A model generated the notes under the pieces. That model ran no database searches. It saw only the letters and a list, made by a program, of their open reading frames with translations, and was not told the origin of the DNA. Both the position numbers and the translations under genes were made by a program. From IMG/VR virus record IMGVR_UViG_3300028610_002065, positions 1 through 64,000 of that record: a stretch of 64,000 bases of DNA. One strand, given 5' to 3'. The stretch comes from a virus (taxonomy: Duplodnaviria > Caudoviricetes). Positions 30,772-64,000 of this stretch are shown here, in pieces (position 1 is the stretch's first letter; every line of letters starts with the position of its first letter).

Positions 30772-30797
30772 GCTTATAGTTCTCCTTTCTTTATAGT

Positions 30798-30817: not shown

Positions 30818-30837
30818 CCTGGCTGGCCTAGCATAAA

Positions 30838-31413: not shown

Positions 31414-31429
31414 CGTCAAACCCCTTTGT

Positions 31430-31460
31430 TGGTGGGGGAGCCCCAATGGAGCTCCCACCA
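31430..31460. other. Intergenic hairpin after the Ubl gene
   Basis: TGGTGGG..GAGC / GCTC..CCCACCA inverted repeat. Confidence 0.5.
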
Positions 31461-31466
31461 TAGTTT

Positions 31467-31848
31467 CTATCCCTTACGACCGGCTGGTTTCAGGAATTCG
31501 AGACGGTCACCATTTTTCAGAACATAATTGGCATCCACCTCTTTACCATTGACGAGGCCAGTGGAAAGGCGATCCACATTCAGGACCTCTCTCAGGCCCG
31601 AACGGAGCGCTGGAGTTGCTCAGTACGGAGCTACCGGTAAAGTTAATACCTTGGAGGGGACCGGCGGCCTTTGCTTTAGGGGCCACAGACGTTCCGCCAT
31701 CCTGATGTGCGATAATAGCATCAACCACAGCATCTTTCGCCAGTTTACTCAGACCGGAGATGCCGAGTTGTTGGAATGCCATTTTCTTCAGACCTTTTGC
31801 TGTCATGCTATTCAGATCTTCACGTGAGTACACTTTTCTTCGTGCCAT
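31467..31848 (-). pseudogene. Ubiquitin-like (beta-grasp) protein with N-terminal HeH/Rho-N-like domain, broken by a +1 frame discontinuity
   Basis: Frame 1 runs MARRKVYSREDL...SAPFG. The +1 frame from 31595 reads LREVLNVDRLSTGLVNGKEVDANYVLKNGDRLEFLKPAGRKG*, stop ending at 31467. Confidence 0.75.
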
Positions 31849-31862
31849 GTTACTAATTCTCC

Positions 31863-32552
31863 TTATGATGATTTTACGATTCTTGTTTGTGCATTTGCAG
31901 ACAGTTGAAGAATATCAAAATATACCTCCGACTGTTGGTCGACCTGGCCCTTTACGATCGTTTTATAAAAGACCCAGCACATGATGGTAGCTACCCCAAG
32001 ATTTGTAAAATACAGTTGGGGTTCTGCTTGAGACAATTCTTCGCATGACATTTCTTCCGGTAACTGGTCTTCGGGATTGGCAATCTCAGGATGATATGCA
32101 CAAAGATCCGGTGTTAAATCAATTCCTCCCCTCCGGACATAAACCTGCACATTACCATCTGTTAATTCGTTCCCACCAGAAATAATTGTAACATCTCTCA
32201 ATTGCATGCTGTAATTAGATATAATATTTCTGGTTTTGTGGTTGTCAACACAGATGAAGACTATGTCTCCTTCTCTGATAACCTCCGCAACATTTGTTTC
32301 ATTAATATATGCTTGAAACGAGTCAACTGGAACTTCGGGAAACTTCAACATAATTTCTGTAGCTTTCACATCCGCTTTGTTCCCGAATTGGTTAAACTCT
32401 TGCCGTTCATAGTTTTTTACTTCATAGTCGTCGCCATCTACTAAAAGGAGTTCCGCATCATAGTCTCTGCTATAATTAAGAAAGCGACATAGGCGTTCAA
32501 TGAGAATACTGCCTACTCCACCTAGTCCTATAACTGTGATATTTAACTTCAC
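31863..32552 (-). CDS. ThiF/E1-like adenylyltransferase (PRTRC-type), copy 1
   Basis: VIGLGGVGS, LVDGD.YEVKN.ERQ, CVDNHKTR, SGGNE, SCEE (candidate catalytic Cys), PQL.FTN. Confidence 0.9.
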   Translation of the reverse strand: MKLNITVIGLGGVGSILIERLCRFLNYSRDYDAELLLVDGDDYEVKNYERQEFNQFGNKADVKATEIMLKFPEVPVDSFQAYINETNVAEVIREGDIVFICVDNHKTRNIISNYSMQLRDVTIISGGNELTDGNVQVYVRRGGIDLTPDLCAYHPEIANPEDQLPEEMSCEELSQAEPQLYFTNLGVATIMCWVFYKTIVKGQVDQQSEVYFDILQLSANAQTRIVKSS

Positions 32553-34334
32553 TTACCCACCTCCACTTCCGAATACTCTTCTCATCATTTTCCTTAAAGA
32601 GTTATTGTGCTTATCTTCAGGACTTTGTGTTAAGAGAGGAATCTGTGGCTTCTGTGGATCTGGGAGCGGCTGTTTTTCTAAGGTTGAATCTTCTTCAGCT
32701 GCTGCCAGTAGTTCACCCGAATCCTTTTTGACAATCTTTTCGGATTCTATAGAAGTGCTGAATGGACTACAGTTGTAACCATCCACCATGTATTCCCTAC
32801 ATTTAGGACAGGTTGCTACATCTCCTTCTGTTATAAATACGATCTTACATGATTTGCACTTATAAGACTGATTTGCTATAAGATTGCCCCCAGATTTGAC
32901 TTCGATTTCTTCGTCTGACGTCGTGCCTGCTTCTGTTTTTCTATATTCGTTGAAATCGAGTTCCTCTTCGCAAAAAGGACATGCATCTTCTCCTTTGTGG
33001 GTGAAGGTATTACCACATGTTGGACATACGAAATCATTCCCAATAACCGGATCCATAGGAGTTACATCAATTTTCTTCATATCAATTTCATCCGGTGCTG
33101 GCTTTCCACATCCAGGGCAAATTGTTGATAAACCCAGATTAAATTTCAGATCACACTTATCACAAATTATATTGATTGATGTTTGACCTTTTTCAAACAT
33201 ATGATCATAGTTATCATCCAATACAAAGTTGTTGGTTTGTTCATCTTCATCGGGTCCGTCAACTTCTTCCGTATACTGTTCGATGGCCCAGTCGATTTTT
33301 TCATCCCTAAATAAACAGTTCTCACAGGGATTAAGATCTTCATCTTGATCATGGGGAGGAAATTCTATCCCAGCTGTTTTGTGTGGGCCAACATTTTGTG
33401 GAGGAATATGTTTACCTTGAACAACAGTCGGTGGAAGATTCTGCCTTCTCCACGGCTGACGATGTGCCCAACCCCAGGCATCAGAGTCGTAATTGCCACC
33501 CCAACCTCGGTTGGCATATGCTCCATGACCATAAGCACGACCAAGACCAGCATAACTGTATGTTCCTTTTTCAACCACGTTCATCCATTTCTTATTGAAG
33601 CGTTTCTGGTGATCTGTTACTGTTACTGCATAGCGTTTATCATACTTTCGATGTGTGTATGAATACCGAGATGTTTGCTTCTCATCTTTGACGAGTTTTC
33701 CAGCCACATATTTATATACTGTCGTTGTCGCTTTTTGAACTTCCTCATCAATATCTTGGGTTAACTTTAGTTGTTCAACATAGTCGTTTGGATTAACGAT
33801 GATGCGATAACCATTGGCAACAATTGATGCTGAAATACTGATTTCTTCATCTCTCATGTTACCAAGGGTTATATGAAGTCCATCAAAAGCTTCTTCATCT
33901 TTATCATCAGTTCCGGAGTGAAATGCCGACATTCCACCATGACTATGAATGGTTCCAATCATGGTTAATCCATCTATCGTTATACCCCTATTGTAATCGC
34001 AAGCTCCACCGGTGACCTTCTGATGTGGGGGAATGATAGTATGGGTTTTCTTTTCTTCATTGTAGAACAGTAAAACAATTGCTTCAGCGTAATACTGATG
34101 ATATACTGCTCTGAAGAACTCAATAACCTTCGCAAACTTTGGACCAGGGATTTTTGAAATTCTCATCCTGGCAGAAGCAGCAACACTTTCTAATGTTGAA
34201 ATCTGATTGACTGGAGCAACACTATCCATGACTCCAATAGTTTTCTTCAAAAAGATTCCTTCTTTTGCTATAACATAATAAACATCATCATCGGGCATTT
34301 GAGTTTGCCCGTCATTTACTACTACCTGGAACAT
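32553..34334 (-). CDS. JAB/MPN metalloprotease with multiple C-terminal Zn ribbons
   Basis: EAIVLL, GTIHSHGGMSAFHSGTDDKDE (JAMM motif); seven CxxC motifs downstream. Confidence 0.9.
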   Translation of the reverse strand: MFQVVVNDGQTQMPDDDVYYVIAKEGIFLKKTIGVMDSVAPVNQISTLESVAASARMRISKIPGPKFAKVIEFFRAVYHQYYAEAIVLLFYNEEKKTHTIIPPHQKVTGGACDYNRGITIDGLTMIGTIHSHGGMSAFHSGTDDKDEEAFDGLHITLGNMRDEEISISASIVANGYRIIVNPNDYVEQLKLTQDIDEEVQKATTTVYKYVAGKLVKDEKQTSRYSYTHRKYDKRYAVTVTDHQKRFNKKWMNVVEKGTYSYAGLGRAYGHGAYANRGWGGNYDSDAWGWAHRQPWRRQNLPPTVVQGKHIPPQNVGPHKTAGIEFPPHDQDEDLNPCENCLFRDEKIDWAIEQYTEEVDGPDEDEQTNNFVLDDNYDHMFEKGQTSINIICDKCDLKFNLGLSTICPGCGKPAPDEIDMKKIDVTPMDPVIGNDFVCPTCGNTFTHKGEDACPFCEEELDFNEYRKTEAGTTSDEEIEVKSGGNLIANQSYKCKSCKIVFITEGDVATCPKCREYMVDGYNCSPFSTSIESEKIVKKDSGELLAAAEEDSTLEKQPLPDPQKPQIPLLTQSPEDKHNNSLRKMMRRVFGSGGG

Positions 34335-36942
34335 TGATAAACCTCCCTGGTTCGTTTATAAAGTGATAGTTTGATTTTTCACTGTAATGAAAAACACCAT
34401 GAAAATTTGGATACCCCGGCAACATTCCTAGATCATCGCCTTGACTTCGTCTAATTCTTGGATTAGGAATACATTCATAAATGTACTCCCTGGTAAATGT
34501 AGAATCCATTGGCCGTGTTTCTGGATAACCGCTATAATATTCCATATACTGAGCTCTAACCCCTCGATAATCCGGAAGATGGGTCACAAAATATCCCTCT
34601 GATGTTTTATAATTGGTTGTACCATTGATTAGATCTCCGGGTTGAGGTTTTATTTTGCTTAAATCAATTGGAGCATGTTTAAGGGTTGCCCATTTCTTTG
34701 CCCTCATAGTGACTCTGGTAAAATCTTTCATCATATCATCAAACCATATGGTCTGTCCATTTGAACAAAGAACTAATGGATCTTTTCCACCAGTGTCTAT
34801 TATAAAACCGACTATAATGTTTACACATTTTTTAGGAAAACCTGAATATCCAGATTCGTTAGCAATGATTTTAGTTCCAGCAGAAACTCGATTAAACACA
34901 TTGGTTATTTTTCTTATTTTACCAATATTACAAAGTCCTAAATAACCATAAATGTATCTGATCTTTGATAAATTTCCATCTTTATCAGAAAGGATGAAAT
35001 AAAGATCTTCACATGTCGACCTGCTCTCTCGTTCAACAATTGAGAACCCTGCAATCTCTTTAACCCTTAGAATATCATGTGGGTTTTTCCAGTCAGCTGT
35101 TACAACTTTATCTCCAACCCTAAACTCAAGGTCTAATAGAAAACCTGGAAGTTTGAATGTATCATTTTTGACTAGTTCAGATATCATTCCATGTCTTGGA
35201 CGACGAAGAGCGCAATTATTTTCATAAGCGAGAGCAGGTCCAGGAACTTCCCAAGCTAAAGTTTCTCGAGGTATTGCAGTTCCATCACTATTTGTGCTAA
35301 TAAAATACATCTTTTTCCCTATTCGAAATAATCCGGGTAAAGGTTTTACATTACTTTCACGAAATAATCTTATACCAGATGAACTAGTTACTCCCTTTGT
35401 GCTCATCGGAAGACGATGGGTCACTCCACGTAGAGCACGGAAAGTATTTACAAACTCATATTCTACTTTCATTGATCCACTACTAACTCGAACTCTTTTA
35501 TAGTTCACTTTTGAAGCACACACCATAGGAGATGACCCTCTTGCATCTCTAATTAAAATATACGGTTCATCCTCTTTTAATTCAATATTATAGACTGAAG
35601 GTTTTTCCATTTCGAATTTGGTAGCATTTATGTTTTCAGCTATATAATAGTCCCTACCAACTTTAAGTTCGGCTCTGCCATCTCGTCCCACTCTAATAAA
35701 ATCAACTGAACCATAATGTTCGCTACCGTCCTTATTAGTGAATATAAGGATATCTCCAGTTTTGACTTTGAGATTGTTATTTGGTAGAACCATTTCATTT
35801 GAATATCGGAGAGCTTTATTTGAGACAGCAATATAGTCTTTCACTTTCTTGGTAAGTTTCATCATAAACTTCTTACCATTCTTATCGACCATAACATATT
35901 TTAACTTACCACCATCTTGGAAACCTATAAATGAGTCGATGTATAATACGTCACCTCTTGAGTTAGTGAACGGATCTCCAATACTTAGAAAATATTCTCC
36001 TACATATATACCGTTTGCAATATCATAAAATAATGGGAATTTCTTTCTCGATCTCGATGTTGGGAGAGCTTCCATATCAGTTCTTCCTGGAGCAAAAATG
36101 ATTTCAGCTGCTCTTGAATAAGTCAATGATTTTTCTCCAATAACGTGAGCATCGTTTTTTACCTTTGTTAACCAGTGACCGATATTACCATTTATTTCTA
36201 TCCATTTGGCATCATAAATGAACAATGGATTTTGTGTTGTTAAGTACTCCCATCTAAGATAGTTCCCAAATTCAGATTCTTCTTTTCTATATGATTCATA
36301 GTTATAAGTATAGTCAGTATTGAAAACAGCTGACCAGAATACCATAATAACATTCTGAATTGTTTGGGTTAGAGAATGTGTCTCGAACTTATTTGCCTCG
36401 CCAAAGCAAACTCTTTGATTGCTAGAAATATTCAGAAGAGGAGCTTTAAGAAGATAATCTGACATCCCTCGCATTTCTTGAGTCCTTAAAAAGACCAGAC
36501 CATCTACAAGATGTGTATCGTGTTCAATAAGTAGAATGAATATAACATATGGAAATGCTAAACTAAATGTTCTAGATGAGCCGCCAGATGCATCAAAATT
36601 CTTATATCCAAACTTTTCTAACACGTTTTCTTGTTTGAGTTGACTAACTTCAGATTCAAATCCCTTATGAATTTTTATAGTTCTGAGGGCTGGAGGTTCT
36701 TCAATCAATACCACATGACCTTTGTTAGTTTGTTCAATATATCTGCAATTAGGAGGCAGAATTCCAATATCTGAATGTCCGGATAGTTTTTTCATATAAT
36801 CATTTGTGAAAAGAGTTCTTTTTACAATGATTGGTTTACCTTCATCCTTCATAGATCCAGCACCAGGTCCAGGAAATTCTGTTAATAGATATTGAGTATA
36901 CTTAGGGTTAATCCTGATCTCTTGAATCAAATCGCTTTTCAT
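34312..36942 (-). CDS. Prokaryotic E2 family D domain fused to a long C-terminal region
   Basis: EEPPALRTI, LAFPYVIF, KAPLLNISSNQRVCFG, FWSAVFNTDY. Confidence 0.8.
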   Translation of the reverse strand: MKSDLIQEIRINPKYTQYLLTEFPGPGAGSMKDEGKPIIVKRTLFTNDYMKKLSGHSDIGILPPNCRYIEQTNKGHVVLIEEPPALRTIKIHKGFESEVSQLKQENVLEKFGYKNFDASGGSSRTFSLAFPYVIFILLIEHDTHLVDGLVFLRTQEMRGMSDYLLKAPLLNISSNQRVCFGEANKFETHSLTQTIQNVIMVFWSAVFNTDYTYNYESYRKEESEFGNYLRWEYLTTQNPLFIYDAKWIEINGNIGHWLTKVKNDAHVIGEKSLTYSRAAEIIFAPGRTDMEALPTSRSRKKFPLFYDIANGIYVGEYFLSIGDPFTNSRGDVLYIDSFIGFQDGGKLKYVMVDKNGKKFMMKLTKKVKDYIAVSNKALRYSNEMVLPNNNLKVKTGDILIFTNKDGSEHYGSVDFIRVGRDGRAELKVGRDYYIAENINATKFEMEKPSVYNIELKEDEPYILIRDARGSSPMVCASKVNYKRVRVSSGSMKVEYEFVNTFRALRGVTHRLPMSTKGVTSSSGIRLFRESNVKPLPGLFRIGKKMYFISTNSDGTAIPRETLAWEVPGPALAYENNCALRRPRHGMISELVKNDTFKLPGFLLDLEFRVGDKVVTADWKNPHDILRVKEIAGFSIVERESRSTCEDLYFILSDKDGNLSKIRYIYGYLGLCNIGKIRKITNVFNRVSAGTKIIANESGYSGFPKKCVNIIVGFIIDTGGKDPLVLCSNGQTIWFDDMMKDFTRVTMRAKKWATLKHAPIDLSKIKPQPGDLINGTTNYKTSEGYFVTHLPDYRGVRAQYMEYYSGYPETRPMDSTFTREYIYECIPNPRIRRSQGDDLGMLPGYPNFHGVFHYSEKSNYHFINEPGRFINVPGSSK

Positions 36943-52507: not shown

Positions 52508-53752
52508 TTAATCAATCCATACAACGGGTCCTGTTTTATTCAAAGACTTAGCTGAAGATCCTGGTCCTAAAATCCAGATGATCTTCTTTGGTAATGCTCG
52601 TCTTGGAATTGCATTAATATCTTCAGTATACCCGTCTGTGAAAGCAAGGCAAACATCACATCCCAATTCTCTTGCTCTTTCAAGACCTGGTCTGAGAGTT
52701 GTTCCTCCTCTTCCTTTAATATTGAATTGGATATCTCTTATTTTCTTGACTTGATACTCTTTCTCCACAACAGCATCACATTCAAGAACAGTTGTATAAC
52801 AATAGCGGTCTTTTTCAATAATGTTCTTCACTCCAGAAAGACCTTCTAATATTGCTGCATTAGACATACTACCTGAAGTGTCAATCAAGACTGCAATATC
52901 AAAAGTTCTATCTCTCATCTTTCCTGGAAATGGAGAGATTTTGGGAATAACTTTCCCTCCAAGTTTGAAGACATAGACTCGCTTTCGGTTGATTCTTGTT
53001 GGACTTCTTTTATATTTACTGTATCGAGTTCCTTTAATCCACTTTTGGATAATTTGATAATACGGAGCTTTTGGTGGAGAAAGCGCTCCTTGGATCAAGT
53101 CAGCAATATGAGATGGTAGAGTTCCTCTTTCTCTGTTGAAAGTTTTAACGGACTCTCTAATAATATCCTGAATGTGATGATCCAATTTTCTAGCTAAGGA
53201 ACTTAAATCAGAAACTCCTTTCATATTTGACCAACCTTCATGCCCTCCAATCATTGGCACCTCTACGTTTACAACCTTATTCCGTAGTAACCAATAGAAG
53301 TATTTTTCTGTCAATTCATTGTCAGGCATACCCCAGTTTCCGGGGAGTTGTGGAGGCCACGGTTTTCCGTCGATAATTACTGGTTCTAATAACTTCATTT
53401 GCTGATTAGCTGCGCAATCAGAAGCAACATTCCAGACTTTAATCTTCAATGCTTTTCTACTTCTTTCAGTTTCATTCGATAGTATTCTTATAAGTCTGGG
53501 TATGTGCTTATTCAATAGATGCATTCCTTCATGCTCGATAACTTTTGTGAGATTTTCATCATCAGTGCCGTTCATCAAGGTTGGTTCATAAGCGAGAGTT
53601 AATGTACCATCATTCTCTGCCATAACTCCCATTATTGAACCGAACCCTGTCATTGGTCGACGTCTGATTCTTGAAAACAAATAACCCCAATAGTTATACT
53701 TGAGCACGAATTTAGCAACCAGGTGTCTTAATCTTTCTCCCTGGTTTTTCAT
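52508..53752 (-). CDS. DUF2201-type HExxH metallopeptidase + vWA protein
   Basis: EHEGMHLL, WNVASDCAAN, IDTSGSM, GRGGT, FTDG. Confidence 0.88.
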   Translation of the reverse strand: MKNQGERLRHLVAKFVLKYNYWGYLFSRIRRRPMTGFGSIMGVMAENDGTLTLAYEPTLMNGTDDENLTKVIEHEGMHLLNKHIPRLIRILSNETERSRKALKIKVWNVASDCAANQQMKLLEPVIIDGKPWPPQLPGNWGMPDNELTEKYFYWLLRNKVVNVEVPMIGGHEGWSNMKGVSDLSSLARKLDHHIQDIIRESVKTFNRERGTLPSHIADLIQGALSPPKAPYYQIIQKWIKGTRYSKYKRSPTRINRKRVYVFKLGGKVIPKISPFPGKMRDRTFDIAVLIDTSGSMSNAAILEGLSGVKNIIEKDRYCYTTVLECDAVVEKEYQVKKIRDIQFNIKGRGGTTLRPGLERARELGCDVCLAFTDGYTEDINAIPRRALPKKIIWILGPGSSAKSLNKTGPVVWID

Positions 53753-55029
53753 TTAACTTTTCCCTCTCCGGCAGCGACAATGGGATCATAGAACTTCTTC
53801 TTATATGTGCGATCCTTATCCATCATTGCTAAATGAAGAGTTGTCATATACTTGAACTGGGGACTGAGTCTATCAAACCCATCAATCTGCGAGATAAATA
53901 ATGCCGCTGTATCAATTGGCATCATGAGCAAAAAGTCAAGACAATTCTGTAGTTTCCATGAATCTTTTTCAAATGGAGGCATAGATGTGCCCAGATATGT
54001 ACAGAAACCAACCATAAGTTCGCTGAGCTTTGAAGCGTCATTTTCTTTGACTAATTTCACAATCTTGTCCTTTACAGATTCGAAACTGTGAAACACATCC
54101 ATTGGACGGATATGCTTTTTATCTCTGGCGAACTCAAGGAAGATTTTGGTCATATTGACATTGAGAAGACCGGAACCCTTGAGTTCAATTTCATCAAAGT
54201 CAATACTTCCACGAGCTATTTCCATCTTCCATAAATGATCAGATAGTTTTTCATAGCTAGCTGGGTTGGCATATACTGCGCCGATTTTTTGGGATTCAAA
54301 GTCGTACAGATACTCAGGAAATGTTTGGATGAACTCAATAATGAGGGGATGGAAATCTTGCTTTATAGCATATGTGAGAAAATCGTGTGCATTGACTTCC
54401 ACATAGAGATGTAATTGCCTTCGAAGACCTGCTGCATCTTCTAGGTTGTCCATCGAATACTCTGAGTCATCCGGATTGTCAATTGAAAATACAAACCACC
54501 CTTTTGGGAAAGGGAGCGTGTGAACTGTATATTCATTCTGAATCTGCCACAGCAGTTGTTGGAGTTGATGGTCGCCACGTGAAAATTCATCAATCACGAA
54601 GATTCCATATGTTCCTTTGACCTTTGGAACAAAGTCAGAATAAAGCATTCTGAAATCACTAAACCCATGTTTATCTTCAACTGGGAAGGGAATAATGAAG
54701 TCATCCCTTGAAAGAACCGGAGATTTAATCATCATTAATTCAAACTCTTTCTGATTCTTTCCTTTGTTCTTTTCATTATAAGCGGCAAAAATCTCCTCTG
54801 TCAATTCTTTGGCAATCTGAAAACAGATTTGAGTTTTTCCTACGCCGGCTGGCCCAATGATATGGTAACATTGTTTGTCAACGTCTCTGCCTTTATTCCA
54901 GGCAATAATGGTATCTTTTATATCGTTTTTAAGTATCTCTTTAATCCCACCGATAGAAGTAACTGCAATATTCAGTCGCTCCTGGTACTTTAATTCCGCC
55001 TCTTGTTTCGCTGTATCATCATCTGGCAT
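53749..55029 (-). CDS. MoxR-like AAA+ ATPase
   Basis: GPAGVGKT, IDEFSR, DNP, LRRQ; adjacent vWA partner. Confidence 0.85.
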   Translation of the reverse strand: MPDDDTAKQEAELKYQERLNIAVTSIGGIKEILKNDIKDTIIAWNKGRDVDKQCYHIIGPAGVGKTQICFQIAKELTEEIFAAYNEKNKGKNQKEFELMMIKSPVLSRDDFIIPFPVEDKHGFSDFRMLYSDFVPKVKGTYGIFVIDEFSRGDHQLQQLLWQIQNEYTVHTLPFPKGWFVFSIDNPDDSEYSMDNLEDAAGLRRQLHLYVEVNAHDFLTYAIKQDFHPLIIEFIQTFPEYLYDFESQKIGAVYANPASYEKLSDHLWKMEIARGSIDFDEIELKGSGLLNVNMTKIFLEFARDKKHIRPMDVFHSFESVKDKIVKLVKENDASKLSELMVGFCTYLGTSMPPFEKDSWKLQNCLDFLLMMPIDTAALFISQIDGFDRLSPQFKYMTTLHLAMMDKDRTYKKKFYDPIVAAGEGKVK

Positions 55030-55050: not shown

Positions 55051-56001
55051 TTAGAATTGTATATCATCAAAACTAAAAGTTTTTGCCTCTTCTGGTTTAT
55101 CTTCTGATGGAGCAGATTCTTTTGATTGCTCATCGCTTTCCATTGACATAACACCCTCTGGCGGTTTGGTTGGTTGTTCTTCACCATATCCAGAAACAGA
55201 TTCTTGCTTACGTTTTGACCAATCAAATTTTTCATTGAATTGACCAACTGTTTCTTTTGACAACTTGAGGATTTTAACTACAGCAGTTTTTACAATCTCT
55301 GGTCCTCGTTCTAATTCAAAAATGTTGACCATGTTTCCATATGAAGATTCTTCTTCACCTTTGGTAATCCTTGTAACAAATCTCTTGTTGTTGACAACTG
55401 ATTTTTCAAACTGTTTGCTTTGATCTGTAACTGGCTCAAATATTGGAGATAAATCTTCTTCATTGTAAAGATCGTTAAGGTAGTCAGAAACATTACTATA
55501 TCTCATTCCTTTTCCTCTAAGAAAGACAAAGACTGGTTTCTTCTCATCTGTCAGAATAGGGGAACCATTTGATTTACAATAGATTCCAGCAACGAGTATT
55601 TGTGCTCGACAAGAATTGCAAAAATCATTTGCTGCTCTTTCTGCTGAAGTTATGGGACATGGACGAGGACTTCCATCCTGAAGTTTTGTCGTTCCATGGA
55701 ATGTGCCTTCTTTATATGAGAAACATTCAGTGACTTCACCTTTTCCCTTTTGCGATTTGATCTTTGCGAGAATATCTTTTGTATGAGTAATTACAAGATT
55801 GACTTCATCTAAATTATACTCAACGCCACGAACCTGTAGTTTGCCAGACTTCTCTTTTATTCCAAGATGATTGTCTCGAGATTTTCCTGAGACATAAACG
55901 CTATGGAAAAATTCATCTTCTGGAGGAACTTGCTCTCCTCCCGTTCCACCTTGATAACCTGTTCCCGACAAATCTTCATAATCTTCAAAATTTTCAGCCA
56001 T
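55051..56001 (-). CDS. Putative single-stranded DNA-binding protein
   Basis: Beta-rich core, CxxC, acidic tail ending FSFDDIQF. Confidence 0.55.
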   Translation of the reverse strand: MAENFEDYEDLSGTGYQGGTGGEQVPPEDEFFHSVYVSGKSRDNHLGIKEKSGKLQVRGVEYNLDEVNLVITHTKDILAKIKSQKGKGEVTECFSYKEGTFHGTTKLQDGSPRPCPITSAERAANDFCNSCRAQILVAGIYCKSNGSPILTDEKKPVFVFLRGKGMRYSNVSDYLNDLYNEEDLSPIFEPVTDQSKQFEKSVVNNKRFVTRITKGEEESSYGNMVNIFELERGPEIVKTAVVKILKLSKETVGQFNEKFDWSKRKQESVSGYGEEQPTKPPEGVMSMESDEQSKESAPSEDKPEEAKTFSFDDIQF

Positions 56002-56018
56002 GTGTAAATGACCTCCTG

Positions 56019-56594
56019 TTATTTATTTGGGACTAAACACCAATTTTGTGCATTACGATCATCTGGTATTGATACCAGAGAAAACTCATGATTGAACCAG
56101 CATTTCATATACTGCTCCATAAGCTCACTTGAAATGAACTCGCATATCTTATTGTAATTTGGTAATTCAGTCAGCTCCGGATCTTCTATAGTAATCGGAT
56201 TAATCTTTCTAACTTTTGAATCAGTAATTTCTCCTGTGATGAGTTTCGGATGTGGGCAGTAAACGATTACTAGTTTACTTCCAACCATTCGATAAATCTC
56301 ATTCTGATAAAAATATGAATTTGTATCTAAATCAAAAGCGACATTTTTTCCTGTAAGTACTCTATTGATAGATGTATGTTGCCTACATAGAATACCATCA
56401 GGTTCCTTCTCTTTGCAGATTTCACAATCAGAATGATCTATTGAATAATTCATTCTAATTTCAAATGTCGGTTCTGCTGCTTTCGAGAAGTAACCCAAGA
56501 TTCTTTTTTTATTCAATAGAAACTTACCAATAGTAATTGGGTAAACATCGCATCCAAGTTTGTCAATAAACTTTTCAATTGAAATTTGCTTCAT
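56019..56594 (-). CDS. Hypothetical protein with CxxC...CxxH
   Basis: SD GAGGAG before ATG 56594; CEIC...CRQH. Confidence 0.55.
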   Translation of the reverse strand: MKQISIEKFIDKLGCDVYPITIGKFLLNKKRILGYFSKAAEPTFEIRMNYSIDHSDCEICKEKEPDGILCRQHTSINRVLTGKNVAFDLDTNSYFYQNEIYRMVGSKLVIVYCPHPKLITGEITDSKVRKINPITIEDPELTELPNYNKICEFISSELMEQYMKCWFNHEFSLVSIPDDRNAQNWCLVPNK

Positions 56595-56614
56595 GTGTAT
56601 CAACTCCTCTTTTT

Positions 56615-56680
56615 TAAAAATAAGAACAAAAACCGTGAGGGGCGAAACACTGGATGCCTCTGCCACATGCACACGGCTTG
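56615..56680 (-). terminator. Possible terminator/structured element
   Basis: GCCGTG...CACGGT stem followed by TTTTGTTCTTATTTTT. Confidence 0.35.
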
Positions 56681-56940: not shown

Positions 56941-57903
56941 TCAAAGCACAAGGGAGAGATAGACAGGAGTTTCATCTTCTTGTATCATATCTCCCCCACC
57001 ACCTGAATCTGTTCGGAGAAGATTAGTTTTTAAAGACCCAGTTTGTCCCAACTCTTGTGAACTAATTTGAATGTCTTTCAATAAAGGAAGAATCTCAGTT
57101 TGAATATGGTCTGAAAATTCGCTTAATATTTTTTCGACTTCATCAGGATCAGCTTCCTTTGGGAATTTTGGCAGGACCAGCGCTGATGGACGAATTTTTC
57201 CTAACATTTTTAAACGAATCATCTCTGCTCCATAGCATCCACGAATCAGATATTTCCAATATGCTTCCCAATGTTGAGGAGATGGCATAATTTCAACACC
57301 AACCGGAACTCCAGCAAACATGATTATAGCACCAATCTGATTTTCGACTGGTTCGAAAGCTGCTGCAAAGTTTTCAAGAGATTTCTTGATTGATGGTTCA
57401 TCATAAAAGTCTCTGATGTGAGCTCGACTGGTACTTCCTGGGACAATACCCCTTAACCAGATGCTGATTCTATCCCATATTTTATCGTATTTTCTTCTCG
57501 ATCTGATGGTTGGATCAAGCAATGCCTTTCTCAATTCAATTGGCAGAATATCTTCATCATTATCACTTTCACGAAGAAGACCACCTTGACTTGATTCAAC
57601 ACAGCAGGCATTATCAAACTGGGACTGACTGCGGCTGGCAACAACACCAGAACCTGACATTGCATGATCTTGTGCACTTTTTCCACGAACCATATAGTTG
57701 GCCGGAACAATAGCTGGACGGGATTGATCCTTATTTTCAAATACCATTGTTCCATAACCTGCAGTTCGGGAGAAAGTTAAGTTTTCAGGATCAGCGATAT
57801 CTCCTCTCGAAGGACCAACAATTGGAACAACTGTCATTTCATCCTCTGATTGAATTGGACCAACCCCAAGATTTGAAAATCCTAACGTTTCAAAAATCGA
57901 CAT
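56941..57903 (-). CDS. ARPP-1/DUF6569-like protein
   Basis: AQDHAM, CVESSQGG, FEPVENQIGAII..AGVPVGVEI.PS..W. Confidence 0.6.
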   Translation of the reverse strand: MSIFETLGFSNLGVGPIQSEDEMTVVPIVGPSRGDIADPENLTFSRTAGYGTMVFENKDQSRPAIVPANYMVRGKSAQDHAMSGSGVVASRSQSQFDNACCVESSQGGLLRESDNDEDILPIELRKALLDPTIRSRRKYDKIWDRISIWLRGIVPGSTSRAHIRDFYDEPSIKKSLENFAAAFEPVENQIGAIIMFAGVPVGVEIMPSPQHWEAYWKYLIRGCYGAEMIRLKMLGKIRPSALVLPKFPKEADPDEVEKILSEFSDHIQTEILPLLKDIQISSQELGQTGSLKTNLLRTDSGGGGDMIQEDETPVYLSLVL

Positions 57904-57908: not shown

Positions 57909-59489
57909 TTACCTCCCGATTAGGTTTTGAAATTTATTGACTAAAAGACCCTTCACAACATCTGTATTTTCGATCATTCGTGTGAAGATAAATTCAGTCT
58001 CCACATACCTGTAGTCGTTGAGCGGAATCGGTTTTACATCTGGAACGAGTGCTCTTGCTGTTCCCTGTCTTGCATCAGCAGAGAATACCGGATTGAAATG
58101 AATCAGGTTAAAGTCATGACCTGATTCTTTGAAATGTTTGTAGGTATGAGCAAACATACCTTTTATTGCATTTTCATATCCATCCGATAGAACAACAATA
58201 TTTTTCACTCCAGTTTTAACCGCCTTGGTTAATCCTGACCAAAGGTCTGTGTGATTCATTGGGATAATCATAGTGATCGGTTTATCAGTTGGAGTTGTAA
58301 CAACCTTACCACCGACACGAATGACCTCTTTGACATTAGACAAAATAGATAACAGACAGAGAGAAGTCAAAAGAGGGTGTAACTTTCTTTCATCACTTCC
58401 TTCCATAGATCGTGATGCGTCCACGATTACCACACACTCACCAATATCAAGTTTATCAGCTTTGGTGATTCTGTAGTCAATGGCGTCTGAGATTTCATTC
58501 ATATCCTCAGTATCAGTTTGAGATAGTTTGAAGTAGAGCAGTTTGAAGAGTTCATAAATATCATGATTTTTATAATTGATTTTTATCTTCTTTGCTCCTA
58601 CTTTCTTACGAGCTGCAATAGTTTGAATTTCTTCTCTTTCTGATACTTTTGACTTATCATGAACTTCAGATAACTCAATGGGAACTTTATATTGATTGCG
58701 AAAACCGACTACGGTTCTCAGGGGCATTCCCTTCATGTTCTTTTTGAAGTCCTCGACATTTCCTTCTTCGGCTGCTTTTCGCAGTCTCCAGTAGTATCCG
58801 ATTTTTGGAAAATAAGCTACAGCTTTTTCGGTTTTATATACTGGTTGTTTATTAAACAAATGCAAGAATATTGGAAATGCATCTGGACTATAGCGACCTA
58901 TCCATTTATCAAACAGCTTTTCATCGCCGTTCAATATTTTGTGTGTGGTCTGTGGGCCAAGAGCATGCCTTGTCAACTTACGAAGTTTGTTCTTGAAGTT
59001 TACAGCTAACCCATCCAGTTCTTTGTTATCTCGACTAAAGATGAACTCAAGAATTAACTTTCTTGTTCTTGCATTGTTCACTTTTGAAAATCCTTCACCT
59101 CCAGTCAACATCATTAGATTCTTGATAGCTCTAGCGAAACGATCTTGCGATACCTTATCAAGATTATATCTGAAGATGTCTTTCTCAAAGTCTTCTGGGA
59201 GTGCATCTGGAACTAAATCTTTGCCGGTTCCAGTCTGTGGGTTAGCTAATAACATGTGATTCATAGCTCCCTTTGAAAACCCTGTTCCGCCCAACAGCGT
59301 GACAAGACCAAACATCACTCTATCGAACTTGAATAGTTGTTGCCACATTTGCAGCACTTGTAAAAACTGCTCATCGGCACCTTCATAGAACGCACCTTTT
59401 GGTGCATACTGCATAATCCCTGAGTCAATTTGCACTGGCAATCTTCCTTCAGCCATGCGAACAGCATCTTGTAACTTCTTACGAGCCAT
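57909..59489 (-). CDS. Helical domain + vWA protein (divergent TROVE/Ro60-like)
   Basis: Helical N-terminus (GAFYE.., KVNNARTR), C-terminal MIDAS VDASRSM...SDGYEN; strong SD. Confidence 0.6.
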   Translation of the reverse strand: MARKKLQDAVRMAEGRLPVQIDSGIMQYAPKGAFYEGADEQFLQVLQMWQQLFKFDRVMFGLVTLLGGTGFSKGAMNHMLLANPQTGTGKDLVPDALPEDFEKDIFRYNLDKVSQDRFARAIKNLMMLTGGEGFSKVNNARTRKLILEFIFSRDNKELDGLAVNFKNKLRKLTRHALGPQTTHKILNGDEKLFDKWIGRYSPDAFPIFLHLFNKQPVYKTEKAVAYFPKIGYYWRLRKAAEEGNVEDFKKNMKGMPLRTVVGFRNQYKVPIELSEVHDKSKVSEREEIQTIAARKKVGAKKIKINYKNHDIYELFKLLYFKLSQTDTEDMNEISDAIDYRITKADKLDIGECVVIVDASRSMEGSDERKLHPLLTSLCLLSILSNVKEVIRVGGKVVTTPTDKPITMIIPMNHTDLWSGLTKAVKTGVKNIVVLSDGYENAIKGMFAHTYKHFKESGHDFNLIHFNPVFSADARQGTARALVPDVKPIPLNDYRYVETEFIFTRMIENTDVVKGLLVNKFQNLIGR

Positions 59490-59680
59490 CTCCTATCTCC
59501 TTTTTAACGTGGGATAATCATATTCAATTTTTTGGATGAAAAATAAATAGAACTTGCCTTCATAAATTGGCGCTCGGGGGAGTAAAACGTAGCGTCAAGA
59601 AACCCGAAAGTATCTGAATCTACGTTTAGTCCCCCTCGCATAAAATGGTGCCCTTAAAAAGAGTGAAAGATGTAAGGGTT

Positions 59681-59753
59681 TGGTTGATACACAAGAATCG
59701 AACTTGCGACAACCGGCGTGATAGGCCGGAGCTCTTCCAACTGAGCTAATATC
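59681..59753 (-). ncRNA. tRNA-Asp-like element (anticodon ATC, shortened acceptor stem)
   Basis: GCTC AGTTGGAA GAGC D arm; CCGGC CTATCAC GCCGG; GCAAG TTCGATT CTTGT; ends ACCA; acceptor only about 5 bp. Confidence 0.7.
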
Positions 59754-60271
59754 TGAACTTTCATCGAGTCTCTTTTAATGGGCATAAAATGAACCAGAAG
59801 TAATATATATAATGTGTAGCGTTCCCCTCGTTGGAGGAGAACAGTCGTACAGGTTTTGACACCTTGGAGACCGACTAAGGTCAATGCTGAAATTATACAA
59901 AGTCTTCTGGTCAAAATGGAGCCGGCACATGGATAAACATGTGTATCGTCCGGCATAAAATAAAAGGGGGCCATACATCCGATATGCAAGTCTTCTGCAC
60001 GCGGTGACCCCTAAGATGGTGGAAGCCGTGATCCTTCATGCCGCGGCGCAATCAGGTGACTCCCATAAAATGATGGGGCGCGATATCCAAAAGACCAGTC
60101 CTGCAATTAATTAGCAGCGATAAGGTTAGTGGCACGCCCCATAAAATAGAACTAGAAGTAGAGAATGACTTGTGGGTTATGTATTTAGCAGTACAATCCT
60201 GAAAAGTCAAAAAGTCTTCTAGTTGAAAAAGTCGGGAGTGATAAACGTAATGTGATAGACTTGCCAGTCTG

Positions 60272-60340
60272 TGGTAGGCAAGACGGGAATCGAACCCGCG
60301 TTCCATGGTCCCATATACCATTGCTGAAACCAACGTCAGC
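60272..60340 (-). ncRNA. tRNA-like element lacking a 5' acceptor strand (loop ATATGGG; His- or Pro-derived)
   Basis: GCTG...CAGC D arm; ATGGT/ACCAT; GCGGG TTCGATT CCCGT; CTTGCCT-ACCA; upstream TTTCAGA cannot pair with CTTGCCT. Confidence 0.6.
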
Positions 60341-60441
60341 GTTCTGAAATTACATCAAGTCTCCCGAGAAAATATAGAATAAAAATAAGTCTCTAATATA
60401 AAAATTTAAATTAAAGAACGTTAGAAATGTATCTTTCAATA

Positions 60442-60455
60442 ATTAATATATATAG
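60442..60455 (-). promoter_or_regulatory. Candidate early promoter CTATATATATTAAT
   Basis: AT-only intergenic head of the long - strand unit; CTATATATA also occurs at 19951-19959. Confidence 0.3.
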
Positions 60456-60475
60456 AAACTGAATTTTTAAAATGA

Positions 60476-60736
60476 TCATGTTGCATCAACTAAAACTGGA
60501 TTACGTTCGTTGTTGAGATCGAAGATTAGCTTCTTACCAGGGAAGCTATCTGCTGTGTTCTTGATAATTTGCTTGGTCGCACTTGGTAAAAAGTTGTTGT
60601 AATAATATAACTGGAGCCCACCCTTAAAATTGAATGCTACTCCGTCGGCTGTTTCTGAAACTTCAACCAATTCCTCTCTTGGAACTGTTATTTTAAAATT
60701 ACCCTTCTTAATTGTTATTTGAGTTTTTTCAGACAT
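60476..60736 (-). CDS. Hypothetical protein
   Basis: SD AAGGAG. Confidence 0.6.
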   Translation of the reverse strand: MSEKTQITIKKGNFKITVPREELVEVSETADGVAFNFKGGLQLYYYNNFLPSATKQIIKNTADSFPGKKLIFDLNNERNPVLVDAT

Positions 60737-61355
60737 TCAGTTCTCCTTCTCTTAATGCTAGTAAAATTGTTGTATTCAATCTTTTAGATTGTTCACAAAA
60801 CCACTCTATCATATCGTCTTTATTATATGTTCTTAAAAAATCAGCAATTAACTTAGGATATGATCTAGTATCTGACTGCTCTTCTATCTCTGAAATTATT
60901 TTATTTCCATTTTGTTCACAATAATTTTCGAAACGCAGTGAGTTTATTTCTGGTTTTAGATACTTCCAAACATTAGTTATGAACTCTTCGTTGTCATATT
61001 CCAAAAATTTGATCAGTTCTATTACATCTGAAGTGTCTTCTACATCTTCAATTTTTACAATTTGGGGAAATATAAAATCATATCTTTCTTTAATGTAACG
61101 TATAATTTCAAAACATAATTCTTTTAGATCTCTAAATTCATATTCTTTTCTTAATAGCGGAATGGTTGCATTGAAACTTTCTTGAAACTCTCCCGTTCGG
61201 ATACTATCAAGAATGGTTAGGAAATAATAACTCTTCAATGCAGCTTCTTCATATGGATAACCTGTTTGACTTTCAACTCTCAAGTCATCCATATCTTCTT
61301 CTGGCATATTTAATGAGTTTCCTAACAATGCTTGTAATGCTCTATCTTCGTACAT
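60729..61355 (-). CDS. Hypothetical acidic protein
   Basis: In operon after the RNAP beta-2 region. Confidence 0.6.
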   Translation of the reverse strand: MYEDRALQALLGNSLNMPEEDMDDLRVESQTGYPYEEAALKSYYFLTILDSIRTGEFQESFNATIPLLRKEYEFRDLKELCFEIIRYIKERYDFIFPQIVKIEDVEDTSDVIELIKFLEYDNEEFITNVWKYLKPEINSLRFENYCEQNGNKIISEIEEQSDTRSYPKLIADFLRTYNKDDMIEWFCEQSKRLNTTILLALREGELNV

Positions 61356-62050
61356 TATTTTTTGGCCCTCCGACTTGCAGTAAATTCTTTTTCCATTCTT
61401 CCGACTGCTCTTCCGACTGCTCTTTTCTGCTGTCTCTTGCGAAATCCTTCAAGGTTCTTTTCAGCTCGTTTAATCTTCTTTTTTGTAGGTCTGATTCTTT
61501 CATATTCTTTTGAGCCTTTTCTATATTTTGATAATTTCTCAATAGATCTTTTTCCATAAAGACCTTTGGTTATATTAGATAATTCTTTTTCCCTTCGGAG
61601 AACTTCATCTGAAGCGTGGCTTACTCCTTTTACTTTTCTTGATAGAGCTCGTTGTCTTATTCCCACTCCTTTTTTCTTACTTATTGTAAATTCATCAGCT
61701 TCATGCCTTTTTGTAATTGCTCCCAGTGTCTTTTCTTTAGGTTTTAAATGTTTCTTTTTAACAGCATGTATTGTTTTAGTACTTACATCTGTATGTGCCT
61801 GCATGGGATCTTTGATGTATTTGCTTGGCGGAAACCAAACCTGTTTAGAATATTTACCACTTGTTTTTCCACCAGCTTTCCTTATCTTTTGAGCAGTTCC
61901 TTTTTCAACTCCCTTTGTCCATTGACTTTGAGTTTTATGGAGCCGACCTTTCTTTATTCTTTTTAAATCACTTGCCTTTAATTTACCAGCAGCGAGCATC
62001 CTCTTCCATTTGGACTCATATAAGTAATCTAAATAATCATCAAGTAACAT
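61355..62050 (-). CDS. Very basic putative internal head protein
   Basis: Acidic leader MLLDDYLDYLYE followed by a Lys/Arg-rich body. Confidence 0.5.
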   Translation of the reverse strand: MLLDDYLDYLYESKWKRMLAAGKLKASDLKRIKKGRLHKTQSQWTKGVEKGTAQKIRKAGGKTSGKYSKQVWFPPSKYIKDPMQAHTDVSTKTIHAVKKKHLKPKEKTLGAITKRHEADEFTISKKKGVGIRQRALSRKVKGVSHASDEVLRREKELSNITKGLYGKRSIEKLSKYRKGSKEYERIRPTKKKIKRAEKNLEGFRKRQQKRAVGRAVGRMEKEFTASRRAKK

Positions 62051-62054: not shown

Positions 62055-64000
62055 TTATCTCTCCAACATTAATGAAACAAAATATGAATTTAATAAATCT
62101 CGACCTGGAGATACCTTTGGTTCTTTGTATTCAGCTTCTCCTTTTTGAATAATCTCTGCTAAAATTTCTTCTCTTGTTATATAATCATCTGATAATGGTC
62201 CCATAAACTCTGCTAATACATGAGGTGCATTATAAGAGATGAATGAATAGGTATCGAGTTCTCCTAATCTTTGACCACCCTCACGCCTTTTGCCAGAAGT
62301 AGGTTGTCCTGTTTTTCCAGTTACAGGTCCAGTACTTCTGCCATAAATTTTTTCTGCTCCAAGATGTTCAAGTTTTGAAATATACATGTAACCACAAGGA
62401 ACTTCTCTTAATGTTTTTGTATTGTATTCAGGCAACGTTAATCTATATCCTGATTTTAACCCCAATGATTTCAAAGCATTTTCGATATGTTTGTTATTTG
62501 GTGCTTGAAATGGTGGAATGATTATTGGATAAAATCCAGTTTTCTTAACTTGCTCAACTAACTTTTTAAATTGTATAGGTGGTAATCTATTCAGACCCGC
62601 TACTAATATGCCTGTATTTCGTCTGTTCGGTGAAGTATCAAGTTGAGAATATATCCTTTTGATTAAATCAATTATCTTCGTTTTAGTGGTCATTGTAACA
62701 ATCAGTCTACCCATTTCTTTTGAAATTAATCCTGTATATAACTCATACATTTGACTAATGTTCATTCTGTTTAGAACACCAATTGGATTTAATACTACTT
62801 CAATGATATCTCCATTTGGCATTCTCGGCATCATATTATCTGGTTCTACCAATGATATAATTCCTTTGTTTCCATAACGACCAGCAAGTTTATCACCAAC
62901 ACCAACTCTTAACTCCTGTTCAACTTTAAATTTAATTAAAACTCCTTTTATTGTTTCACCTTTAAAAGAGAACTTTTCTCTTGGAATTTTTCCGTGTCTT
63001 TTAGCTGTTCTATCAGCATGATCTTTTATTTTTGGAAATTTACTTGGTGCAACATTTGAGTAAACTTGAATATCAACTATTTTTCCACCTGGACTTTTCT
63101 TTACAAATTGACCGGCAAATAAATCAGTTGATTCATCCTCTTCGAAACCAATGATTTCTTCTACATCTCCCATTGTTTTTCTAAGCAGAGGTTGTCCTTT
63201 TTCAATGTACTGACCTATTTCTCCTATGAACATAATTCTATCATTTTCTGATACTAAAACTTCTTCTTCAATACCATGTAGAGATGTTAATTTATCTTGA
63301 TCAGACACACTTTGACTAATAACAATTCCATCTTCAAAATTATATCCTTTGTATGGCATCATTGCGACTAATAATGGACGACCCAATGAGATGGTACCAT
63401 CAGACATACAAGCACCTTCAGCAATAACTTTTCCTTTTTTAACTACATCTCCCGCTTTAACAATAGGAGTAAAAACACTAAGAGTATTTTTTCCAGATCC
63501 TGATTTTAAATGTGCTGGTGTAATATCAATTGCTTGACTTTTATTTCCACACTTTACATATATTGCATGTTCAGTTATTCTGGTAATCTTTCCATCACAC
63601 GGAGATTTCTTAACAAAACTATTTGATAACACTCCAGTTAATATTGATTCATAACCTGATTGAACTGGAGGACTTTGAGGATTCTTTAGTGGTAATGATT
63701 GTTTAGCTTGATTAGTTGCCATAATAACTCTAGCACCATCTGTGTTTTCAATGAATGGAATCATTGCAGATGTAGTTGATAACATTCCACTACCTTCATT
63801 GTTACTTATAACTTTTTCAGCAAATAATCCTCTTGAAGATGATACCATTGCATCGACTGTTAGTTGTTGAATCAGTCCAATGTTTTCACTCTCTGGTGTG
63901 TCAAGAGGATCTATATTACCAAAGTATGTTGGATGTAAATTTCTTGCTGCTTGAGAGATTGCTCTTTTATCAGGAATACCTCCAACCTTCTTTCCAACTG
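62055..64000 (-). CDS. rpoB: RNA polymerase beta subunit, copy 2 (5' partial)
   Basis: Frame is open to the window edge (RNLHPTYFGNIDPLDTPESENIGL upstream of the listed Met); NFEDGIVIS, GDKLAGRYGNKG, GGQRLGELD. Confidence 0.95.
   Translation of the reverse strand, partial: VGKKVGGIPDKRAISQAARNLHPTYFGNIDPLDTPESENIGLIQQLTVDAMVSSSRGLFAEKVISNNEGSGMLSTTSAMIPFIENTDGARVIMATNQAKQSLPLKNPQSPPVQSGYESILTGVLSNSFVKKSPCDGKITRITEHAIYVKCGNKSQAIDITPAHLKSGSGKNTLSVFTPIVKAGDVVKKGKVIAEGACMSDGTISLGRPLLVAMMPYKGYNFEDGIVISQSVSDQDKLTSLHGIEEEVLVSENDRIMFIGEIGQYIEKGQPLLRKTMGDVEEIIGFEEDESTDLFAGQFVKKSPGGKIVDIQVYSNVAPSKFPKIKDHADRTAKRHGKIPREKFSFKGETIKGVLIKFKVEQELRVGVGDKLAGRYGNKGIISLVEPDNMMPRMPNGDIIEVVLNPIGVLNRMNISQMYELYTGLISKEMGRLIVTMTTKTKIIDLIKRIYSQLDTSPNRRNTGILVAGLNRLPPIQFKKLVEQVKKTGFYPIIIPPFQAPNNKHIENALKSLGLKSGYRLTLPEYNTKTLREVPCGYMYISKLEHLGAEKIYGRSTGPVTGKTGQPTSGKRREGGQRLGELDTYSFISYNAPHVLAEFMGPLSDDYITREEILAEIIQKGEAEYKEPKVSPGRDLLNSYFVSLMLER

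Follow-up and report, generated by a model that had tools for sequence, protein, structure and literature searches.

Known Ro60 particles and a phage locus of similar design

Ro60 is an RNA-surveillance ring protein that holds Y RNA on its outer surface and misfolded RNA in its central hole, and its TROVE fold is a known RNA binder. Ro60/Y-RNA particles are found in animals, some bacteria and a few phages, their microbial role is poorly understood, and a tRNA-like cargo is a hallmark of the bacterial Y RNAs. The comparison system in bacteria is YrlA (Rfam RF02553), described for Salmonella (rsr-yrlBA-rtcBA), M. smegmatis and mycobacteriophages (Chen et al. 2014, PMC4201824). YrlA is encoded beside rsr, its ends are paired into a stem with the motif GNCGAAN0-1G, and it contains a permuted tRNA-like domain; Ro60 has been reported to contact Y RNA mainly on the 5' strand (PMC4201824). 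In phages, the Ro60 of Thermus phage phiLo binds two Y-like RNAs that carry a CGAA motif and are encoded just upstream of its gene (PMC12135203), and TROVE proteins have been noted in a few jumbo phages (PMC7824862). Here we analyze a 64,000-nucleotide stretch of the IMG/VR virus record IMGVR_UViG_3300028610_002065 (hereafter the window), in which an array of small structured RNAs ends 85 nucleotides upstream of a gene for a Ro60-like protein.

Five modules of this array share one scaffold, and we give a probability of roughly 70% to their being Y-RNA-like partner RNAs of the neighboring protein, whose common handle would dock on the protein ring, perhaps together with the adjacently encoded ARPP-1, leaving the enclosed cargo on display. 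An initial annotation made from the sequence alone had described about eight stem-closed modules on the minus strand upstream of a vWA gene, and this layout was confirmed: the minus strand of 59575-60366 both reads and folds as eight units, each shut by a terminal stem. All five of the modules to which a common scaffold had been ascribed (M1, M2, M6, M7 and M8) were located and follow the plan [outer stem]-ACUN-[8-bp arm]-UUCAG-[cargo]-[arm']-~5 nt-[outer stem']. In the window the outer stem has 5-9 bp and ends in R-G, the arm has 8 nucleotides, the cargo 20-92 and the UAUCA-like gap 3-5. The scaffold is missing from the remaining units, the stem-closed hairpins M3, M4 (two hairpins) and M5. 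A tract of four to five U residues, mostly of the form (C)AUUUUAUG, lies 0-4 nucleotides 3' of seven of the eight units, and the array is richer in G+C (45%) than the window (34.5%). The features are as follows, where R1 is the covariance model described in the next section.

60442-60455, minus strand: candidate promoter box CTATATATATTAAT, ~75 nucleotides upstream of M1; one copy in the window
60233-60366, minus strand: M1, scaffold module with circularly permuted tRNA-His-like cargo (R1 41.1 bits, E 9e-7)
60150-60224, minus strand: M2, scaffold module with 27-nucleotide hairpin cargo and 9-bp outer stem AACUAGAAG/CUUCUAGUU (R1 47.2 bits)
60074-60141, minus strand: M3, non-scaffold hairpin GGGGCG.../...CGCCCC-A-UCA followed by UUUU (fold -26.6 kcal/mol)
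60017-60064, minus strand: M4a, minihelix-like hairpin GGGAGUC...GGCUUCC-ACCA with G3-U70 wobble, A73 and CCA (sequence and fold)
59967-60011, minus strand: M4b, hairpin GGGGUCA...UGGCCCC followed by CUUUU (sequence and fold)
59917-59954, minus strand: M5, short hairpin GCCGG...CCGGC-U-CCA, then UUUU; conserved at the sequence level in L001 and L006
59792-59912, minus strand: M6, scaffold module with 73-nucleotide structured cargo and outer stem GACCAGAAG/CUUCUGGUU (R1 45.8 bits, E 8.4e-8; outside the training set)
59648-59784 (core 59658-59775), minus strand: M7, scaffold module with tRNA-Asp-like cargo in normal order (R1 32.1 bits)
59575-59638, minus strand: M8, scaffold module with 20-nucleotide UUCG-type hairpin cargo (R1 49.3 bits, E 1.4e-8)
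57909-59489, minus strand: Ro60-like protein, 526 amino acids; TROVE-like helical ring and C-terminal vWA in the AlphaFold2 (AF2) model
56941-57903, minus strand: ARPP-1, 320 amino acids (PF20208); start 6 nucleotides past the Ro60-like gene

L-numbers, here and below, are labels of the loci compared.

A covarying RNA scaffold upstream of the gene

The simple pattern GACUN-N8-UUCAG has six matches in the 64-kb window, and five of them lie on the minus strand within 59614-60361, against 0.66 expected. We built a covariance model, R1, on a MAFFT alignment of 15 short modules, comprising 13 from related contigs together with M2 and M8 of the window; the E-values of this and the other covariance model built here are rough. 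In the 64 kb, R1 picked M8, M2, M6, M1 and M7 (E 1.4e-8 to 8.9e-5) and nothing else, recovering M1, M6 and M7 although they lay outside its training set.

Covariation across homologous loci, on which the initial annotation had staked its reading, proved to be strong. In a MAFFT alignment made from sequence only, 96.7% of the cells pair and 15 of 17 pairs are changed on both sides, while sliding the partner columns by 1-3 positions lowers pairing in the same alignment to 37-48%. The window and eight non-duplicate close loci together hold 40 R1 modules, of which the ~35 outside the window all stand upstream of the orthologous gene; in the alignment of these 40, which was fitted to R1, 94.9% of the cells pair and 12 of 14 pairs are changed on both sides. 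The outer stems are free in sequence with complementarity always kept. A U-A/C-G swap between M2 and M6 and G-U pairs that favor the minus-strand RNA, both pointed out in the initial annotation, are real; two G-U pairs in the arm of M1, for example, fit the minus-strand RNA only. The conserved bases are mostly those of the 5' strand, namely ACU, a G-U step in the arm, and CAG. The G-U step stands at a fixed distance from the apical junction in all three groups compared and is not imposed by the regular expression used for scanning (below). The scaffold is a real structured RNA family.

No Rfam family (4227 families, searched against the window region and 17 related loci) matched the handle. 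The tRNA, tmRNA-like and sub-threshold YrlA matches in these regions are to cargo, and the other matches, which were scattered over unrelated families and below threshold, we read as chance. A bulge-helix-bulge splicing motif, a kink-turn and known ribozyme cores were considered for the handle and set aside, with Rfam as the only computational test, since neither loop sizes nor sequences suit them.

The scaffold follows the gene over a wide range of genomes. The Ro60-like protein has 325 homologs in a library of 1.8 billion proteins; scanning IMG/VR with the single protein alone found nothing, and scanning it with the homolog alignment found 80 viral loci. R1 has 62 matches in these 80 loci, all on the strand of the gene, and every match with E <0.01 lies within ~1.3 kb upstream of it. 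The motif stands upstream of the gene in the nine closest loci (protein identity 51-61%). At loci with protein identity of 21-25%, the weak R1 matches show the same plan in other letters, as in AAGAAG-AACUU-GUUGUGAA-UACAG ... AUUACAAC-UAAAC-UUCUU. A second model, R2, which takes in such divergent modules from distant loci, gave 57 matches at E<=0.05 in the distant loci, again all on the strand of the gene. Additionally, a scan that combines a regular expression demanding ACU and CAG with a pairing requirement, and whose counts are lower bounds, returned 121 plus-strand versus 7 minus-strand matches in the viral loci and 29 versus 3 in 66 cellular loci. The cellular carriers are Rhodopirellula, Stieleria, Novipirellula, Thalassoglobus, Polyangiales, Saprospiraceae and an archaeal metagenome-assembled genome, and the stems in those high-G+C cellular genomes are of entirely different sequence.

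In both phages and bacteria the scaffold stands, as the initial annotation had required of it, beside the vWA gene, whether an ortholog or a distant homolog, including homologs of just 22-27% identity in phages, Planctomycetes and Myxococcota. Modules range over jumbo phages, other phages and bacterial chromosomes (Planctomycetes, Myxococcota, Bacteroidota). A search of IMG/VR from the RNA motif returned 66 stretches, in which true scaffolds occurred in gene-carrying contigs only, L109 excepted; this search also uncovered a new locus, L143, with both genes. Among deposited phages, a DNA search found no close relative and a single 56-nucleotide tRNA-like match, and a protein search of 50,697 phage records found one match, in an uncultured 462-kb phage (22.6% identity). 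The locus looks like an undescribed, widespread branch of the Ro60/Y-RNA particles.

The Ro60-like protein and ARPP-1 compared with described systems

The 526-amino-acid protein matches no family in Pfam (E<=0.01), PHROG or NCBIfam, none of 75 aligned homologs matches Pfam TROVE (PF05731), and every naming source calls the homologs "hypothetical protein". The C-terminal third is a vWA domain, whose metal ion-dependent adhesion site (DxSxS ... D; D357, S359, S361, D436, G437, N440) is invariant in 75 sequences. An AF2 model made from the single sequence was unusable, with a predicted local distance difference test (pLDDT) score of 39; we used instead the 75-sequence alignment, which gave a pLDDT of 90.8 and a predicted template modeling score of 0.88. 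Foldseek ranks 1-11 for this model are all Ro60/Rsr/TROVE proteins matched at full length (best E 5e-7). With VIA-align, residues 19-500 of the model superpose on residues 28-529 of 1yvp_B (Z 18.2, root-mean-square deviation 4.0 A over 415 residues); the ten best rows are all Ro60, and matches to vWA alone begin at Z 11.5. TROVE clusters are among the ESM Atlas neighbors, and a sequence profile search of the PDB gave weak vWA-type matches only. Identity to Ro60 is ~10%. Because the predicted structure matches Ro60 while the hidden Markov model does not, the protein is Ro60-like by fold yet outside the Pfam family, and the assignment to TROVE/Ro60 in the initial annotation is borne out at the level of predicted fold. 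We take the modeled protein to be a very diverged structural cousin of Ro60, with a TROVE ring and a vWA domain. The locus reveals a second Ro60-like family, large and unannotated, with its own covarying RNA handle.

The gene downstream belongs to ARPP-1 (PF20208, 79.6 bits against a cut-off of 27, E 3.3e-22). An ARPP-1 homolog directly follows the Ro60-like gene in 76 of the 80 viral and 51 of the 66 cellular loci, and the bacterial ARPP-1 neighbors score 102-132 bits. ARPP-1, which has conserved Cys and Gln residues, is probably a working partner of the Ro60-like protein. A sugar-directed enzymatic activity has been predicted for ARPP, and in ADP-ribose conflict systems it was observed in the vicinity of vWA genes (PMC9503650); we found no mention of TROVE or RNA in that paper. 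ARPP-1 is a constant, enzyme-like partner that was hitherto discussed only in ADP-ribose conflict systems.

Similar to Rsr/YrlA loci, the locus combines a ring protein of TROVE plus vWA fold with same-strand small RNAs just upstream, more than one per locus, whose ends are paired into a stem and whose conserved bases are mainly on the 5' strand. As in YrlA, the variable upper domain mimics tRNA and is at times circularly permuted with a loop-closed acceptor. A terminal stem around a tRNA-like domain, which defines YrlA, is present here in the covarying stems and in the cargo of M7 and M1, and the RNAs lie <4 kb from the Ro60-like gene, an arrangement that recurs in the related loci. In contrast to Rsr, the protein has only ~10% identity to Ro60 and misses Pfam TROVE, and its constant partner is ARPP-1, not RtcB/RtcA. 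The loops are ACUN and UNCAG where YrlA has GNCGAAN0-1G, the modules form arrays of up to 5-8, and the cargo varies from a plain hairpin to a full tRNA with a varying point of junction to the handle.

The closest phage precedent, phiLo, likewise has a phage-encoded Ro60 with Y-like RNAs immediately upstream and is among the top structural matches (Z 14.5-15.3; PDB 9KOP, 9L5Y). However, its Ro60 is a recognizable TROVE protein, its RNAs carry CGAA and number two without forming an array, and ARPP-1 has not been reported beside its gene. The best structural match is to metazoan Ro60 (Xenopus Ro-Y3, PDB 1YVP, Z 18.2), and metazoan Y RNA (RF00019) resembles our modules in its terminal stem, U-rich 3' end and variable loop; the modules lack its bulged GGUCCGA helix, and transcription is bacterial or phage rather than by RNA polymerase III. 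Lastly, large-phage tRNA clusters also consist of tandem same-strand tRNA-like genes with short AU-rich spacers, but here tRNAs are a minority of the units, an external handle of two helices is what is conserved, and the tRNA-like domains show a short acceptor, a permuted order or an anticodon with adenosine at position 34 (A34).

Neither YrlA (gathering score 69 bits) nor RF00019 had a match at E<=10 in 58500-61500, and the YrlA matches in related loci, at a sub-threshold 25-35 bits, fall on T, acceptor and D parts of the cargo and not on the stem. On the RNA strand of 59561-60475 there is no GNCGAAN0-1G and not even CGAA, and GGUCCGA does not occur in the array, in line with the remark in the initial annotation that the internal loop is not the canonical Y RNA motif. 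We found no description in the literature of this handle or of the trio of Ro60-like protein, ARPP-1 and RNA. Since the system behaves like the Ro60/Y-RNA kind but fails membership of YrlA, Y_RNA and Pfam TROVE, we read it as a variant. Overall, the reading proposed in the initial annotation is largely supported.

Cargo, proposed mechanism and alternatives

The cargo of M7 is called by ARAGORN as tRNA-Asp(atc) at 59682-59755 and scores 45.4 bits against Rfam tRNA (threshold 29) with two acceptor pairs missing. It has a 5-bp acceptor stem, an encoded CCA and the anticodon AUC (A34) in the loop CUAUCAC, and an extra outer stem, UGCCC/GGGCA-CCA, encloses the module. In M1 the order is D arm, anticodon arm (loop AUAUGGG, anticodon AUG), T arm, acceptor 3' strand with ACCA, a loop, and acceptor 5' strand; Rfam finds only the T arm and ACCA, as a tmRNA-like match. 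ARAGORN makes no tRNA call on the native order of M1, nor at default settings on a naive rotation that keeps the junction; once the cargo is rotated and the junction removed, its default settings call tRNA-His(atg). Neither M7 nor M1 forms a canonical tRNA, defined as a cloverleaf with a 7-bp acceptor and a usable anticodon, and the cargoes of M2, M6 and M8 are not tRNA-like. In related loci, tRNA-like cargoes bear the anticodons AUA, AUG, ACA, ACG, UAU, UUG, UCG, UGA, GAU and UUU, and the remaining cargoes are plain hairpins of 14-30 nucleotides. The order is T-acceptor-D-anticodon in L022 and anticodon-T-acceptor-D in L152, a module of which matches Rfam YrlA at 35 bits (cut-off 69) with its T, acceptor and D parts. 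The handle joins the tRNA fold at the acceptor ends (M7), between nucleotide 9 and the D arm (M1), in the variable region (L022:2663-2811) or between the D and anticodon arms (L152:3481-3624); these differences are several independent circular permutations of one fold. The cargo is modular and includes tRNA mimics whose attachment to the handle takes several permutations, and handle plus swappable cargo make a natural RNA display scaffold.

The 5' and 3' ends of each RNA pair into a two-helix handle consisting of the free-sequence outer stem, an internal loop with the invariant 5' ACU, an arm of 8-9 bp in which a G-C/U-A step is conserved, and, at the apex, the UNCAG junction. In the mechanism we propose, this handle would be the docking site for the ring protein, and the cargo, which is either a simple hairpin or mimics a tRNA in normal or permuted order, would be a display domain that recruits a tRNA-recognizing factor or decoys it. 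We infer binding of the RNA by the protein, processing of the array and this role of the cargo. The docking reading is supported by the position of the conserved bases, which are mainly on the 5' strand as are the reported Ro60 contacts on Y RNA (PMC4201824), and by the precedent of phiLo Ro60 (PMC12135203). Since the module spans jumbo phages, other phages and bacteria, many natural variants are at hand to test RNA reading by Ro60-type rings and recruitment by the tRNA-like domains.

The array would be transcribed from the conserved box upstream of M1 as a single precursor and then cut in the U-rich linkers. The box CTATATATATTAAT recurs 45-60 nucleotides upstream of the first module in L001, L002, L003, L005 (twice), L007 and L143, and judged from this recurrence the array probably has its own promoter, with the box as candidate. 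Inside the array no sigma-70-like promoter stood above chance and no intrinsic terminator was found. The box and this lack of internal promoters and terminators fit a single transcription unit without proving it. The linker CAUUUUAUG was considered as a general phage promoter and rejected, having 40 matches at one mismatch versus 43 expected and no enrichment elsewhere in the window; CAU and AUG within it pair to form the ends of neighboring terminal stems.

Several points weigh against partner RNAs of the Ro60-like protein. The known Ro60-binding motifs are absent from the array, and the window region has no Rfam Y_RNA or YrlA match. Because the regular-expression scan imposes both ACU and CAG, their invariance is partly by construction. 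A lone, well-formed scaffold (L109:8288-8350, minus strand, R1 42 bits), the only orphan copy found, belongs to a provirus fragment of 28 kb (28% complete) that carries no Ro60-like gene. Additionally, near-canonical CCA tRNAs occur as cargo in related loci (67 bits in L003, 61 bits in L152), and ARPP-1 could be the direct partner of the RNA, since its co-occurrence is as tight as that of the Ro60-like protein.

The near-canonical tRNAs with CCA leave room for a role in tRNA production. The handle might be a maturation or stabilization cassette for phage tRNAs and tRNA-like RNAs, its stems guiding an endonuclease (host RNase III, E or P, or ARPP-1) that frees the cargo as the functional product, with the Ro60-like protein as a quality-control chaperone only, or unrelated. 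Several cargoes are indeed good tRNAs whose CCA is encoded, M7 and the L003 tRNA both begin their acceptor with the G of UUCAG, the U-rich linkers resemble RNase E sites, and in L012, L151 and L152 the arrays lie inside clusters of tRNA genes. However, many cargoes are hairpins of 14-30 nucleotides, or tRNA domains that are permuted or lack an acceptor, and could not become tRNAs although they keep the same handle; the A34 anticodons AUC, AUG, AUA and ACA would misread in translation; and it is the handle, not the cargo, that is conserved beside the gene across phages and bacteria. We therefore regard such a cassette as improbable.

About as improbable is a scheme in which the scaffold RNA is a ligand or substrate of ARPP-1, for example through a ribose in the conserved ACU or CAG loops, and the ring protein is only a vWA-type chaperone. 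The tight coupling of the two genes (76/80 and 51/66 loci) and the predicted sugar-acting activity of ARPP beside vWA genes (PMC9503650) speak for it. Against it, ARPP is also found in settings that lack this RNA and this gene, with HIRAN, WYL or a deacetylase (PMC9503650). Moreover, the TROVE fold binds RNA, while no RNA-binding activity is known for ARPP, and we consider this scheme unlikely as well. That the units are cis-acting attenuators, terminators or leaders controlling the Ro60-like operon rather than stable trans RNAs would suit their same-strand position upstream of the gene, the U tracts after most units and a conserved hairpin-like element before the start codon, but is very improbable given up to eight tandem units over as much as 2.5 kb, tRNA-like domains among the cargoes, the lack of any intrinsic-terminator-like site in the array and a copy number that varies freely among close relatives.

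For Y-RNA-like partner RNAs, the A34 cargoes suggest a more speculative function. In six tRNA-like cargoes, A34 takes the place of the G34 used by bacteria: AUC (Asp), AUG (His, twice), AUA (Tyr, twice) and ACA (Cys), at 59682-59755 and 60233-60366 of the window and at L001:4682-4808, L006:4509-4634, L022:2663-2811 and L018:4683-4811. The Asp, His and Tyr tRNAs belong to the queuosine family, and some anticodon nucleases target them. Because A34 cargoes would misread as real decoders, they point to decoys rather than tRNAs. The array might then be a set of programmable tRNA decoys or adaptors, in which handles dock on a Ro60-like/ARPP-1 complex and each cargo imitates one tRNA, so that host tRNA-targeting defence enzymes (anticodon nucleases, tRNA-modifying enzymes) are captured or neutralized, or damaged tRNAs are brought in. 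The tRNAs mimicked would be His and Asp here, with A34 replacing the G34/queuosine position, and Tyr, Cys, Gln, Lys, Ile, Ser and Arg elsewhere. We hold this extension to be doubtful; if it were true, cargo swapping and circular permutation would be an evolutionary route to retargeting.

The non-scaffold units at 59917-60141 are minihelices ending in CCA or near-CCA, and the G3-U70 wobble of M4a is as in tRNA-Ala. Hairpins of the form GGGG...CCCC-ACCA, orthologous to M3, lie in spacers of L001 and L006, and these and M5 are kept in L001, L005 and L006. M8 has an ortholog with the same flanks in L006. Between the last module and the start codon (59495-59545, minus strand) is an element resembling AAAAAAUUGGAUAUGA-N-AUCCCACGUUGGA with a short palindrome, GGAUAU GA AUAUCC in L001. 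Same-place copies are found in L001, L002, L004-L007, L009 and L143, and the element may serve the Ro60-like operon as an operator or as a leader hairpin.

Elsewhere, L151:340-3511 (a Thalassoglobus neptunius contig), L152 and L012 hold >20 tRNA or tRNA-like genes in the 3.5 kb upstream of the Ro60-like gene, and L012 has a tmRNA gene too, plus a weak YrlA-like match 3.8 kb upstream. On a Stieleria chromosome (L160:2084-2671 and 6968-9301), a gene for endonuclease V, an inosine-specific nuclease family, lies upstream of the trio and a HIT-PLD-helicase fusion downstream, with a transposase nearby; from gene content these surroundings appear defence-island-like.

The window itself belongs to a jumbo-type phage, with two multisubunit RNA polymerase sets, a terminase, a baseplate protein, gyrase/topoisomerase genes, an E1/E2/JAB set and a MoxR-type ATPase. 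The separate beta/beta' sets are at 23086-29147 and 62055-63998 (a 999-aa beta-like, an 886-aa beta'-like and a 597-aa split beta-like protein), two such sets being typical of phages with virion and non-virion polymerases. At 29917-36942 a ThiF (E1)-like gene, a prokaryotic-E2-domain protein and a JAB-plus-zinc-ribbon protein stand in a row as a putative ubiquitin-like conjugation set. Nothing in the family databases or the PDB matched the neighboring genes at 55051-56672 and 60476-62050. Four genes downstream of the Ro60-like gene, 52508-55029 encodes an AAA+ ATPase (phrog_1297) followed by a DUF2201_N metallopeptidase plus DUF2201 vWA-like protein; the pair, which is the MoxR-vWA-peptidase pair known from some jumbo phages (PMC7824862), is syntenic in 9/9 close loci.

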